Shown here piece by piece: positions 25,481 through 34,884 of a stretch of 64,000 bases of DNA; positions within the stretch are counted from its first letter, which is position 1; each line of letters opens with the position of its first letter. The notes under the pieces were generated by a model. It was not told the DNA's origin, did not search any database, and saw nothing but the letters and a program-made list of their open reading frames with translations. The stretch comes from Eledone cirrhosa. Lineage: Eukaryota. The stretch covers positions 38,936,001 through 39,000,000 of the forward strand of contig OZ024752.1 in the NCBI GenBank assembly GCA_964016885.1, in the 5' to 3' direction. The position numbers and the translations under genes were made by a program.

Positions 25481-25810
25481 GTAGGAGGTGAGTTTTATTG
25501 TAGCACAATAAAGCAATGCAAATATCGAATAAGTAGCACTCTACAGTTTGTAGGACTGGAGTATAAATAATATAAGATCAAAAGATGGTTAAAAGAGTTC
25601 CAAGTATTTTATTATGCGCATTTCAAAAACAGATATCATCATGGGATGATATCTGCGTTCTCATCAGATAAAATAGGGAGACATGATATGAAGCTTAAAA
25701 ACACTTGTGAATAGTGAAGTTTTAAATCATCCCATGATGATATTTGTTTTTGAAATGCGCATAATAAAATACTTGGAACTCTTTTAACCATCTTTTGATC
25801 TTATATTATA
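25481..25810 (-). mobile_element. Hammerhead-bearing fold-back element in MFS intron 1, between TA tracts
   Basis: Inverted arms ~25566-25650 and 25725-25810; same family as 34657-34916. Confidence 0.8.
25605..25675 (-). ncRNA. Minimal type-I hammerhead ribozyme
   Basis: Minus strand: TATTTTAT-CTGATGA-GAACGCAGATATCATC ccat GATGATATCTGTTTTT-GAAA-TGCGCA-TA-ATAAAATA; 8-bp stem I, long stem II and palindromic stem III. Confidence 0.88.
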
Positions 25811-25820
25811 TATATATATA

Positions 25821-26010
25821 CGAGAGTAGGCTGAAAAGTTCACAGGCTGACCAAGATACTCTCATGGAATGGCCAAATGAGGTTTATTTTTCAACATAGT
25901 GCCTGGAAAGAAACAATTAACAAGTAGAGTCGAAATGAATGCATAGAAGATTTCACAGCTCTAGCATCACTCCTGCAAAACCAGCCTACGAACTTTTCAG
26001 CTTACCCTCG
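25821..26010. mobile_element. Mariner-type MITE
   Basis: TA|CGAGAGTAGGCTGAAAAGTTC...GAACTTTTCAGCTTACCCTCG|TA. Related copies at 28656-28830, 31196-31682 (internal ~144-bp unit repeated three times) and 62982-63246. Confidence 0.85.
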
Positions 26011-26036
26011 TATATATATAGTTTTAATATAGATCA

Positions 26037-26085
26037 GATTCTACAGGACTAGAACTGTTTCATTCTTTAGAAATCATCAGGAATC
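26037..26085 (-). ncRNA. Type-I hammerhead ribozyme
   Basis: Minus strand: GATTC-CTGATGA-tTTC taaa GAAt-GAAACAG ttctagtc CTGTA-GAATC. Confidence 0.78.
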
Positions 26086-26089
26086 ATCA

Positions 26090-26142
26090 GGGATTCCTGA
26101 TGATTTCTAAAGAATGAAACAGTTCTAGTCCTGTAGAATCTC
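26090..26142 (+). ncRNA. Type-I hammerhead ribozyme
   Basis: GGGATTC-CTGATGA-tTTC taaa GAAt-GAAACAG ttctagtc CTGTA-GAATCTC; 4-bp stem III, GUA triplet, predicted cut after 26135. Confidence 0.82.
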
Positions 26143-26561
26143 ATCTATATTAAAACTTTTATACTCTGCAATGTATTGAGTACCTTACTTACTGTGGTTA
26201 CCTCCGATTCAACCCGGAATAACGTACCTATATATATATATATATATATATATTTACACACATATATATATATATATATAGGAAGGGATTCGGATGGTAG
26301 GCGTCCCAACGCAAATAACTATAATAATAGTTGATCACCATAAATAGGAGAGGACAGAGATGTCCTTGACGACTTTTTTTTCGTCTGCAGGTGTATTTTA
26401 CCCGATTTTCTTAACTATGATTTATCGTGATCAGCTATTACTATAGTCACTTGCGTTAGGACGACTAACTTTCAGATTTTAAATTTTACCAGTTCTTCTT
26501 ATGTCAACCGCTTGTTTATGAGTATGTGTGTTTGCACACACAAATACACACATATATATAA

Positions 26562-26757
26562 GTTTATCCCGGGTTCAATCGGGGGTAACCACAGTAAGTA
26601 AGGTACTCAATACATAGCAGAGTATAAATATTTAATATAGAAATGGCTTCTACAGGACTAGAACTGTTTCATTCGAGAGAAATCATGACGATTTCTTGAC
26701 GAGGAAGCCTTGACGATTTCTTCCGAATGAAACAGTTCTAGTCCTGTAGAAGCCATT

Positions 26758-26760
<3 letters not shown>
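26562..26760. mobile_element. Second copy of the 26021-26228 hammerhead fold-back family, opposite orientation, rearranged centre
   Basis: Arms ~26640-26685 and 26712-26760; the shared tail TACTCTGC..GTATTGAGTACCTTACTTACTGTGGTTACC ends in TA repeats. Confidence 0.8.
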
Positions 26761-26792
<32 letters not shown>

Positions 26793-26875
26793 CTATATAT
26801 ATATATATAGAGAGAGAGAGCGAGAGAAACAGAGAGAATTAGAATGAAATAGAGAGAGAAGGATTAAGATCTTAC

Positions 26876-27425
26876 CTATAGGAAGAACAAAAGCAAGTGT
26901 TGCTAATCCACCTTTCCCAAACGAGACAAATGATCTAAACACCACCAGAATGGGAAAGTTAGTCGCAAATGTAGATCCGATTGCAAATATACAACATATG
27001 GATACAGTAAGAACAAATGTAAACTGGCGGCCATGCCTATCACTAAGAATTCCAAAAAGATATTCTCCAAACATAGAAGCCAGTCCATTGCAGAAAGGAA
27101 GCCACGGAAAAATCATATCGCTTAAATTCCATTCTTTCTTAATTGGTTCATTAAGAAATACAAAAACCATTAGTTCGCTGCAGACAGCAAAATAAGCGGT
27201 TCCACCAAGTAGTATAATCAAAATATGAAATCTACCAAATTTCATATCCGTTAAGACATCATCAAGACTTCGCTCAGTCTCTTCACAGAATTGAAAACTT
27301 AATGTATCATATTGTGGCGGAGGATCTTCTTCATCAGTATTAACCAAGCTTACATTGTCTTGCAATGTTTGACCTTCGTCGCTGTCGGTAGACATAATGA
27401 CCGGCCCGATCATTGCTTCCGACAT
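26876..27425 (-). CDS. MFS transporter exon 1
   Basis: ATG at 27425; FGRFH and the MFS motif A GILSDRHGRQ; donor G|GTAAG. The three exons total 1590 nt = 529 aa + stop. Confidence 0.92.
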
Positions 27426-32725: not shown

Positions 32726-32789
<64 letters not shown>

Positions 32790-32831
32790 CTTCAAAATAT
32801 TAATAAATGTAGACATTCATGTGATCAAATA

Positions 32832-32897
32832 TATTTTATTATATATATTTCAGAGGTACTGAGCTATTTCAACAGTACGTCCTCATCAGATAAAATA
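32832..32897 (-). ncRNA. Minimal type-I hammerhead ribozyme
   Basis: Minus strand: TATTTTAT-CTGATGA-GGAcGTACTG ttgaaatagct CAGTACcTCT-GAAA-TATATA-TA-ATAAAATA. Confidence 0.87.
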
Positions 32898-32939
32898 AAT
32901 TGATGTCTGACATACCTTGACTGTGTTGGTGGTTAAAAT

Positions 32940-33940
32940 TCAGTCATGGCAGTGATTAGTTATGACAAAACTCAATATTTATATACTTTAAGTTGAAACA
33001 TGAAAAATTACATATAATACAGAGGGTACGTATGAGATTGTGTATAAAAATATAAAAATTTATAATAATAAATAAATAATAATAAATATACTACATAAAA
33101 CTACTTAACTGTTAAAAATTTAAATAATAAAATATGTATACCTTCATATTGTAGATAGAGCAAGCGAGAGAGCGGAAAAAAGCTAATCGTAGGAGATTAG
33201 CTTTTTTCCGCTCTCTCGCTTGCTCTATCTACAATATGGAGGTATACATATTTTATTATTTATCTGTCTGGTGGCCATGGCGAAAGAGATAGTGTCTTCA
33301 GCCCTTTCAACGTGGACACGTTTGAAAGGGCTGAAGACGAGCACTTACCTCTTCGGTGATGCCCTGATTAACTTTTTCAAATTTCATTTGAAAAGGAAAA
33401 TCAGGGTAGAGAGGGAAGTGCTCTCTTCCCAGCATTTTGTTGAAAGATGGGTGAGAGAAGCAAGTATGGCCCGAATGAATGGGCCTTCTCTGAGTATGTG
33501 TCTGTAAATTAAAGGTGGAAAACTGGGAGAGGGCACTTGCCCTGGTGATCAGGGTCACTGTGGTCTTTTAATGGGCTTTCTCCACAAATGTCCCTCGGAA
33601 GTCTCCCCCCTATTGGGGAATTTTTCTTTGTTATTTTATTACATCCTCTGTTTTTTTTACACGCAGAAATGCCCATTTGTACCGTCCTGTATTGTCCTGT
33701 ACTGTCCTTAATGTCTACTTTATGTAAACCCTTGTGGTTAATAAAGAAAACATTATTTAAATTTTTAACAGTTAAGTAGTTTTATGTATTATATTTATTA
33801 TTATTTATTTATTATTATTATATTTTATATTTTTATACACAATCTCATACGTACCCTCCGTATTATATGTAATTTTTCATGTTTCAACTTAAGGTATATA
33901 AATATTAAGTTTTGTGATAACTAATCACTGCCATGACTGA
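32940..33940. repeat. ~250-bp-arm palindrome (centre 33189-33194) interrupted by a LINE insertion
   Basis: 32940-33188 is the reverse complement of 33195-33262 plus 33760-33940. Confidence 0.9.
33263..33751 (+). mobile_element. 5'-truncated LINE 3' end (L1/Tx1-like)
   Basis: ORF tail ...LINFFKFHLKRKIRVERE...FVERW, 3' UTR, AATAAA, and 8-bp TSD ATTATTTA (33255-33262 / 33752-33759); a similar extreme 3' end occurs at ~40875-40912. Confidence 0.75.
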
Positions 33941-34001
33941 GAGTGCTTCTAATCTATTGTAAAACTTTATTCATTGATTAATTCATTGAACCTTGTTAAA
34001 C

Positions 34002-34053
<52 letters not shown>

Positions 34054-34188
34054 ATGCAAAGGTTATATTTAATTTGTTGGAATTCAACAAACTTAAAAGT
34101 TTTATAACTGATATAAAGCACTCAACAGTTTGGTGGAGTAAATATTCATTATATTAATAAATGGAAACTATATTTATAAAACCATAAT

Positions 34189-34251
34189 TATTTTATTATA
34201 TATATTTCAAGGGCAATCAAGGCAAATTTTGGTGCGCTTTCATCAGATAAA
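34189..34251 (-). ncRNA. Minimal type-I hammerhead ribozyme (left arm of fold-back 34146-34448)
   Basis: Minus strand: TTTAT-CTGATGA-AAGcGCA...TGCcCTT-GAAA-TATATA-TA-ATAAA. Confidence 0.8.
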
Positions 34252-34340
34252 TTTACAAAATTTGTTTTATAAAACAGCGAACCTCCAACCGTCAAGGTTG
34301 TTCTTCGGTGGGTATGTCACCATTTATAAAACAAATTTTG

Positions 34341-34406
34341 TATTTTATCTGATGAAAGCGCACCAAAATTTGCCTTGGTTTCACTTGAAATATATATAAT
34401 AAAATA
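34341..34406 (+). ncRNA. Minimal type-I hammerhead ribozyme (right arm of fold-back 34146-34448)
   Basis: TATTTTAT-CTGATGA-AAG...ACCAA...TTGGT...CTT-GAAA-TATATA-TA-ATAAAATA. Confidence 0.85.
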
Positions 34407-34812
34407 ATTATTGTTTTATAAATATAGTTTCCATTTATTAATATAATGTATATATATATATATACATCATAATCGTTTAATGTCTATCTGCCACGCTAAC
34501 ATGGGTTAGATGGGAGTTGTACATATATATATATATATACCCTTGCAAGCAGGGAAAAGCAAACGTAAAATGATGATGATGATGATGGATGTATATATAT
34601 ATAAACAATTATATATATATATAAGAAAAAATTAATCCTACACATATATATATATATGTAGGAGGTGAGTTTTATTGTAGCACAATAAAGCAATGTAAAA
34701 TATATATATTTTTTTTCCCCAATATCACACATCAATCTTAAATTATTTTTCATATGTTGATTTAAAACTTTACTATTCACAAGTGTTTTTTAACCTTCAT
34801 ATCATGTATCCC

Positions 34813-34884
34813 TATTTTATCTGATGAAAATGCAGATATCATCTCATGATGATATTTGTTTTTGAAATGCGCATAATAAAATAC
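34813..34884 (+). ncRNA. Minimal type-I hammerhead ribozyme
   Basis: TATTTTAT-CTGATGA-AAAtGCAGATATCATC tcat GATGATATTTGTtTTT-GAAA-TGCGCA-TA-ATAAAA; paralogue of 25605-25675. Confidence 0.87.

Follow-up and report, generated by a model that had tools for sequence, protein, structure and literature searches.

The 64,000-nucleotide (nt) stretch of Eledone cirrhosa DNA analyzed here (contig OZ024752.1, positions 38,936,001 to 39,000,000; hereafter the window) contains five hammerhead ribozyme motifs, which were recovered by scanning both strands for the hammerhead core with a paired stem I. Judged by the motifs of the elements that carry them, these are type I hammerheads located near the 3' end, in the 3' pseudo-long terminal repeat (pLTR), of three related families (A, B and C) of Penelope-like elements of the Hydra clade, and they probably act as double hammerheads in transcripts of tandem copies. 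A sequence-only reading of this DNA had reported four of the motifs; all four are present, but the one that starts at 34813 ends at 34883, one base less than claimed, and the motif at 34189-34254 on the minus strand, a family C copy with a damaged stem I, was absent from that list. The motifs and the element fragments that contain them are the following.

25461..25729, minus strand: family A Penelope-like element, 5'-truncated 3' end with a tail of about 85 nt and a (TA)n terminus, 96% to the 3' end of L124, a locus bearing an open reading frame (ORF)
25605..25675, minus strand: family A type I hammerhead, helix III AUGCGCAU, predicted cut 25613/25612, with AAUAAA at 25613-25608 spanning the cut
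25726..25814, plus strand: inverted short arm of the same family A insertion as 25461..25729, containing only the 3' half of the ribozyme, without CUGAUGA
32740..33091, minus strand: family B element 3' end with a (TA)n terminus, 96.6% to L158 (whose ribozyme is preceded, at a distance of 1.28 kb, by a remnant of the endonuclease)
32832..32897, minus strand: family B hammerhead, UAUAUA in this copy (family norm UAUGUA), predicted cut 32840/32839
33752..33940, plus strand: inverted arm of the family B insertion (3' untranslated region (UTR) upstream of the ribozyme), followed by a partial B tail
34139..34456, both strands: family C 3' ends forming a head-to-head pair (arms 34139-34267 and 34328-34456, 90% complementary, within (TA)n)
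34189..34254, minus strand: hammerhead of family C, located on the inverted arm and with only 5 bp left in stem I
34341..34406, plus strand: family C hammerhead, helix III AUAUAUAU, predicted cut 34398/34399
34712..34917, plus strand: family A element, 5'-truncated 3' end up to (TA)n, accompanied at 34649-34699 by a piece of the tail in inverted orientation
34813..34883, plus strand: family A hammerhead, predicted cut 34875/34876, AAUAAA at 34875-34880

Every copy in the window is a truncated element end with an inverted partner arm. The four motifs reported before share the layout TATTTTAT-CTGATGA-stem II-GAAA-6-nt palindrome-TA-ATAAAATA, with an AUA triplet as the cleavage site, as had been proposed; TATTTTAT and ATAAAATA form an 8-bp stem I in four of the five motifs of the window, and stem II is 31 or 36 nt long. 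All five show the core CUGANGA, GAAA and UH, three helices and the open stem I of a type I hammerhead (positions below follow the hammerhead numbering). The motifs are real and of a known kind, namely, Penelope-like hammerheads of the dimer type. The original observation is partly confirmed, and its interpretation is upheld in part only.

The assignment to the Hydra clade is based on protein motifs and anatomy, with the reference proteins compared by eye. A protein search placed a sense-strand family A ribozyme 1,132-1,203 nt past the end of the ORF in 18 of 25 loci. This ORF encodes a reverse transcriptase (RT) followed by a C-terminal GIY-YIG endonuclease, with frames of 760 amino acids (L122) and 715 amino acids (L124) that contain YRDDG and a C-terminal VYEC..YFG region; in a Pfam search, the family A ORF itself had no match and a homologue (P0037) had a GIY-YIG match. 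RRLRWIA (RWK-like, with K replaced by I) and SDKTNN were seen in family A only, the respective regions of B and C not having been recovered. The endonuclease fragments of all three families contain CNC-x5-C (CxCX5C), CNLC and CxH, with no CxxC inside the GIY-YIG core, and family A displays the arrangement CxxC..E..N..CxH. These hallmarks, along with (TA)n targeting, match those given for the Hydra clade in section 11 of PMC8557442. The endonucleases of A, B and C are about 47-53% identical to each other, and the remnants in B and C end about 1.3-1.4 kb and 1.4-1.5 kb upstream of the ribozyme, respectively, so that the ribozyme lies 1.1-1.5 kb downstream of the ORF across the three families. 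Tandem copies exist as well: L124 reads ribozyme, tail, 5' UTR, ORF, 3' UTR, ribozyme, with the two ribozymes about 3.65 kb apart, and an upstream ribozyme was found in 7 of the 27 family A loci that include the ORF start. In the window itself, tblastn revealed no Penelope-like ORF remnant.

Two other identities were considered and ruled out. An element with two different ribozymes, a B-like hammerhead being located upstream of the A ORF in L122 and L123, is incompatible with the (TA)n run that lies between them and with the A ribozyme carried by other ORF-start loci. Non-LTR retrozymes do not fit because short head-to-tail non-coding tandem units are missing and the copies are solo or head-to-head and represent ends of ORF-bearing elements. 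L122 and L123, which lie on two contigs, are themselves composites that are nearly identical to each other (a B-like end, an inverted A tail, the A ORF and a second A copy), which suggests that the entire block was copied as a unit.

Similar motifs are present in about 100,000 copies in the 3.0-Gb genome, where a first look yielded more than 2,000 candidates for each family. A 22-letter pattern that covers stem I, the core and the start of stem II had 32,475 genomic matches, compared to none in the reversed control, and a core-only pattern had 105,305 matches, compared to 9,374 in the control; given this excess, the motifs are not due to chance. Rfam scans of the window (76 matches) and of the region 34100-34950 (28 matches, E<=10) detected no hammerhead family; the matches were hairpin-type microRNA look-alikes only, all under the gathering scores. 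Rfam thus misses these motifs, and about 10^5 of them stay unannotated. The core is intact in 93 of 101 copies of family A, 19 of 24 of family B and 46 of 53 of family C. An unselected sample, consisting of the first 100 core matches on contig C1, included 69 motifs with the stem I type found in the window, 19 that belong to a sister group in which stem I is different, and 12 chance matches or other types.

The sequence-only reading held that the families share an identical stem I. This is the case for four copies in the window, but elsewhere exact TATTTTAT was found in only 31 of the 100 unselected matches. In the same sample, 19 of 27 family A copies carry TGTTTTAT, related families have TATTTTGT/ATGAAATA, and ATAGAATA is another common variant. 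Nearly all stem I changes inside the A/B/C group are A to G, i.e., wobbles; the outer helix, which is separated from the first 8 bp of stem I by an internal loop, is wholly different among A, B and C, and the stem I of the sister group consists of entirely different letters. This pattern fits common descent plus constraint. Given that stem I is kept at 50% protein identity, the constraint appears to act on its letters, beyond pairing, and a tertiary or protein contact is a candidate cause, beside the AAUAAA hexamer considered below. When two runs, taken as contigs, were compared with the family A window copy only, common variants were observed at core position 7, at one stem I wobble and in stem II, and none in helix III.

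Stem II, which had been described as unrelated among the families, turned out to share its beginning in A, B and C (RRR-Y-GYA) and to fold in each as 3 bp, a Y.Y mismatch and then a helix; furthermore, B and C can be aligned from the 3' part of the ribozyme to the element end (75.7%, 111 nt, E 7e-17). The mismatch at position 4 is present in all 27 recurrent variants, i.e., those seen at least twice (C.C in 16, C.U in 10, U.U in 1), with two-sided changes at stem II pairs 2, 3, 5 and 6. Altogether 284 of the 293 collected motifs, from both stem I groups, have Y.Y at this position, and the C is nearly invariant: it is present in 49,876 UAURUA motifs, whereas a looser pattern that requires another letter at this position gives only 3,505 matches, and of these, the 100 listed mostly look like degraded members of the families already described. 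The family A copy at 34813..34883 has the rare U (U.U, not C.U). The literature searches made found no paper on a C-C mismatch in hammerhead stem II, and no published precedent for the fixed C.Y mismatch, for AAUAAA at or just after the cut (12 of 13 clusters) or for the long-armed design that unites them.

Together with A15.1 and U16.1, the palindrome makes an 8-nt self-complementary helix III. The palindromic nature of this helix, as originally noticed, is borne out by two-sided changes that preserve it (UGCGCA, UACGUA, UAUAUA, UAUGUA and UGAUCA), in agreement with the published double-hammerhead mechanism, and helix III is fully self-pairing in all 27 recurrent variants. The proposal that each palindrome serves as a family-specific dimerization code does not hold, because the palindromes are common to several families and polymorphic within family C, and UAUAUA pairs with UAUGUA without a mismatch. 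In particular, UAUAUA is not the family B palindrome, with TATGTA present in 19 of the 20 top B loci and the window copy as the sole exception. Among the collected copies, TGCGCA occurs in 89 of 101 of family A, TATGTA in 20 of 24 of family B, and TATATA and TATGTA in 39 and 12 of 53 of family C; in the unselected sample, TATATA was found in 7 clusters and TATGTA in 4, across both stem I groups, and genome-wide UAURUA is present in 49,876 motifs from many families. Hence there are at most three compatibility classes, mutually poor partners: UGCGCA, UAURUA and UGAUCA. In models of helix III, AUAUAUAU and AUAUGUAU pair with 0 mismatches, AUGCGCAU and AUAUAUAU with 2, and AUGCGCAU and AUAUGUAU with 1, and AUGAUCAU has 3 mismatches with AUAURUAU and 2 with AUGCGCAU.

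The energies of the double hammerheads were modelled with nearest-neighbour parameters relative to separate strands, and only their ranking is meaningful because the model leaves out tertiary contacts. Homodimers came out at -10.3 to -11.5 kcal/mol (A-A), -1.0 (B-B) and -2.6 to +2.2 (C-C), and heterodimers at +3 to +6 (B-C), -2.2 to -5.1 (A-B with UAUGUA) and +17.5 to +18.1 (A-C with UAUAUA). Since stem I joins the two strands in a double hammerhead, trans pairing across families through the shared stem I, as suggested in the sequence-only reading, would be permitted in principle; in the models, B and C are set apart by the family-specific outer part of stem I. No paper testing heterodimers of such ribozymes was found, although a work of Lunse, Weinberg and Breaker, of which only the title was seen, may bear on palindrome swaps.

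The 3' ends of the elements fall into two peaks, at about +50 and at +135 to +150 from the cut site (the B and C reference copies used for mapping stop at +150 and +145, respectively). Of 210 ends, 183 are located at (TA)n (89 of 106 in A, 31 of 34 in B and 63 of 70 in C), and none is in poly(A). The two peaks match the two reverse-transcription start sites and the tail described in PMC11167929. The tails of A, B and C (e.g., 25483-25565, minus strand) share ACTCCA...GAGTGCT just past the first of the two ends, and this motif is a candidate site for protein binding or for the start of reverse transcription. The integrated copies run through the cut and carry an uncut site, and therefore the template is either uncut or re-ligated; circles are proposed in PMC4209133, and uncut RNA was found to be used in vitro in PMC11167929.

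Taken together, we consider it likely that the hammerheads in the 3' pLTR of these three related Hydra-clade families cleave as double hammerheads derived from matching tandem pLTR-ORF-pLTR copies. A transcript that runs across such a tandem would contain two matching ribozymes, which would pair via the palindrome and exchange stem I strands to yield a double hammerhead, probably aided by the protein of the element. Activity of Penelope-like hammerheads as dimers via a palindromic helix III is documented in PMC4209133 and PMC6765202. A lone copy, with a helix III of only 2 bp, would be mostly inactive (for 10 motifs, the models gave the active fold of the monomer a probability of 1e-8 to 4e-4), so that solo copies could be tolerated even in a sense intron. 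The copy at 25605 is likely to be such a case: it lies between two frames on its own strand that encode an MFS transporter, 21193-22122 and 26793-27425, both minus (Pfam MFS_1 and Sugar_tr), and hence apparently on the sense strand within an intron of this gene. The partner that matters is likely to be the tandem copy of the very same element, whose match is built in. Under this arrangement, the palindrome would have to stay self-complementary while its letters drift by transitions, so that the sharing of palindromes by some families and their difference in others would be a by-product; stem I would be inherited from the common ancestor, with a sequence-level constraint retained. The copies in the window are truncated stumps and are likely to lack a partner. 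Local dimers are improbable, given that C at 34341 and A at 34813, both on the plus strand and 470 nt apart, are mismatched, and that the damaged C at 34189 on the minus strand lies in a 129-bp hairpin.

Several observations weigh against the double hammerhead. In the models, which ignore tertiary contacts, the homodimer is clearly favourable for family A alone. The usual G10.1-C11.1 pair is absent, and the 27 recurrent variants have A-U (18), G.U (6), U.U (2) or A.C (1) at this place; U.U there is reported as tolerated in PMC3088659. The covariation expected for conserved helices was checked by per-pair shuffles on only 6 cluster representatives and is weak, with 51 of 5000 shuffles for II.3, 257 for II.6 and 296 for III.4. 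Copies that start within 4 nt of the cut site number 4 among 291 alignments, which is no excess, in a sample biased by loci that were picked mostly with ribozyme-containing queries. Canonical animal hammerheads with a 2-bp helix III and a tetraloop are presented in PMC7229834 as the more stable type, so cleavage by monomers is possible, and the ribozyme of the other Penelope-like element examined in PMC11167929 needed the element protein and was dispensable for insertion in vitro.

Among the alternatives, it is conceivable, although unlikely, that the stem I letters are fixed because the 3' strand also serves as a poly(A) signal, A^AUAAA lying across the cut; folding would mask this signal or cutting would destroy it, which would switch between a tailed messenger RNA and a read-through template. 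AAUAAA and AUUAAA are poly(A) signal hexamers, and in 12 of 16 clusters one or the other lies between -1 and +20 relative to the cut, compared to a fraction of 0.20 in shuffles and 0 to 0.125 in flanking windows; in 12 of the 13 clusters with a six-letter loop the hexamer is present, and in the 3 with CTAG or CGCG loops it is not. Where the spanning hexamer is broken by wobbles or stem I is different, a hexamer appears at +5, +7 or +13, and the almost exclusive A to G changes in the stem I of A, B and C point in the same direction. Inspected by eye, 11 of 56 published Penelope-type hammerheads in Fig. S3 of PMC4209133 have the hexamer just past the cut, but only 2 of the Hydra-clade rows inspected in File S2 of PMC8557442 do. 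Moreover, in A, B and C, the UUUUAU partner strand and the AUA triplet give AAUAAA automatically, which reduces the independent cases to about 3-4, and the region is A-rich. The lack of copies that end in poly(A) and the position of the element ends, 37-50 nt past the hexamer with the tail extending about 85 nt beyond, also argue against such a switch. No paper that ties a poly(A) signal to a pLTR ribozyme was found; one review uses the term twice, in passages not consulted.

A broader version of this possibility appears slightly more doubtful still: the hammerhead would be a switch between tailed messenger RNA and a read-through or circular template, with the AAUAAA across the scissile bond masked by stem I and destroyed by cleavage, the C.Y mismatch would dock stem I or a protein, and the approximately 50,000 UAURUA copies would trigger cleavage across families, from which the UGCGCA and UGAUCA families would have escaped.

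There is a rather small chance that the ribozymes act as monomers or only when bound by protein, such that the long stems and the C.Y mismatch form a docking or protein site and the self-complementarity of helix III is a leftover. The long stems I and II, the internal loop after 8 bp of stem I and the near-invariant C at stem II position 4 are in line with this possibility, as is the protein-assisted cleavage demonstrated for another Penelope-like element in PMC11167929. However, self-pairing of the loop survives two-sided changes, which a monomer would not need, and protein binding is compatible with dimer formation in any case.

Least probable, and indeed very unlikely, is that the palindromes make up a compatibility code selected against cross-pairing, with classes instead of families and the common stem I allowing trans pairing: although the three classes are mutually poor partners (in the models, A-C at +17.5 to +18.1 vs. 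-10 to -11.5 kcal/mol for A-A) and family A largely retains TGCGCA, UAURUA is common to many families with different stem II and, in some cases, different stem I, B-C pairs have no helix III mismatch and lie a few kcal/mol above the homodimers through loss of the outer stem I, A-B pairs with UAUGUA are modelled as net favourable despite one mismatch, and palindromes already differ among the families of one genome in Fig. S3 of PMC4209133 (CGCG and GGCC in Aedes).

The closest known relatives of these hammerheads and their host elements are found in the Hydra clade (Craig et al., 2021, PMC8557442; e.g., Hydra-1_Obim), which, as described there, shares the RT followed by a C-terminal GIY-YIG, the RWK-like, DKT, CxCX5C, CxxC and CxH motifs, (TA)n targets, 5' truncation, partial tandems, inverted copies, a one-sided tail and a hammerhead near the 3' end. 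The present families differ in the 3' UTR of 1.1-1.5 kb and the unit of about 3.65 kb, compared to published lengths generally below 3 kb, and in the Hydra-clade hammerhead rows inspected in File S2, stem II is short and paired throughout, and helix III is a hairpin with a loop of 1-3 nt. The search of these rows for TATTTTATCTGATGA gave 0 matches, i.e., the stem I of the window is absent from them. The minimal and palindromic hammerheads of animal Penelope-like elements reported by Cervera and de la Pena (2014, PMC4209133) resemble those of Eledone in the type I topology, the intact CUGANGA/GAAA/UH core, the palindromic helix III suited to a double hammerhead, many sequence families per genome and mostly solo copies with some opposite-strand pairs. 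In contrast to those, the present motifs lack an extra base between A9 and 10.1 as well as the G10.1-C11.1 pair, and they have the AUA triplet throughout, a longer stem I (8 bp plus the outer helix), a stem II of 26-36 nt and the fixed Y.Y at pair 4. Their number, about 10^5, is comparable to that of axolotl retrozymes (PMC7229834), but this genome is far smaller. Animal non-LTR retrozymes (PMC7229834; bioRxiv 10.64898/2026.07.22.740005) likewise combine a type I hammerhead with a high copy number and a Penelope-like link, whereas the copies examined here are dispersed truncated ends of ORF-bearing elements and not short head-to-tail repeats. In Poseidon of the green anole (Frangieh et al., 2024, PMC11167929), a tail is likewise delimited by two element ends past the ribozyme, and the copies keep an uncut ribozyme; this element belongs to another clade, and its ribozyme overlaps the ORF start, whereas here the ORF begins about 300 nt past the ribozyme.

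Other hammerhead families were encountered along the way. The sister group includes an abundant family (L204, L222, L264-L293) whose stem I is different and whose motifs combine the UGAUCA palindrome with U.U at 10.1-11.1; its copies show the same (TA)n and inverted-arm anatomy. The ORF in L222 was ruled out as this family's own, being 86-89% identical to family C with the UGAUCA copy nested in it, and no ORF was found in about 1.7 kb upstream of each of 30 further UGAUCA loci; accordingly, this group is Penelope-like by anatomy only. L013, L005, L030, L162, L193 and L248 contain compact families whose palindromes have only four letters (CTAG, CGCG); their stem I is different, and they lack an AAUAAA nearby. 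A further hammerhead-like family forms a head-to-head pair at 26030-26147 of the window, with a short stem II, an ACAG...CTGT hairpin as helix III and stem I GGGATTC/GAATCTC; the helix III letters resemble those in the Penelope-1_NV and Penelope-1_SK rows of PMC8557442, File S2. Elsewhere in the window, a frame at 54214-54870 (minus strand) looks, by eye, like a deleted mariner-type transposase, with a similar frame in L046, and 15800-19100 and 29600-30900 are taken up by repeats, namely, a degenerate (TA)-rich array of great length and a minisatellite rich in CAT/CAC.

The hammerheads of Penelope-like elements are conserved and yet poor cleavers, and they were dispensable in the sole in vitro system. 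The location of the ribozyme in the pLTR and the dimer formed via the palindrome are already published. Because the genome of Eledone cirrhosa contains many families with long, comparable arms, the constraints on these ribozymes become readable, namely, a fixed Y.Y mismatch in stem II, a stem I that changes by wobbles only, an adjacent AAUAAA and three classes of palindromes.

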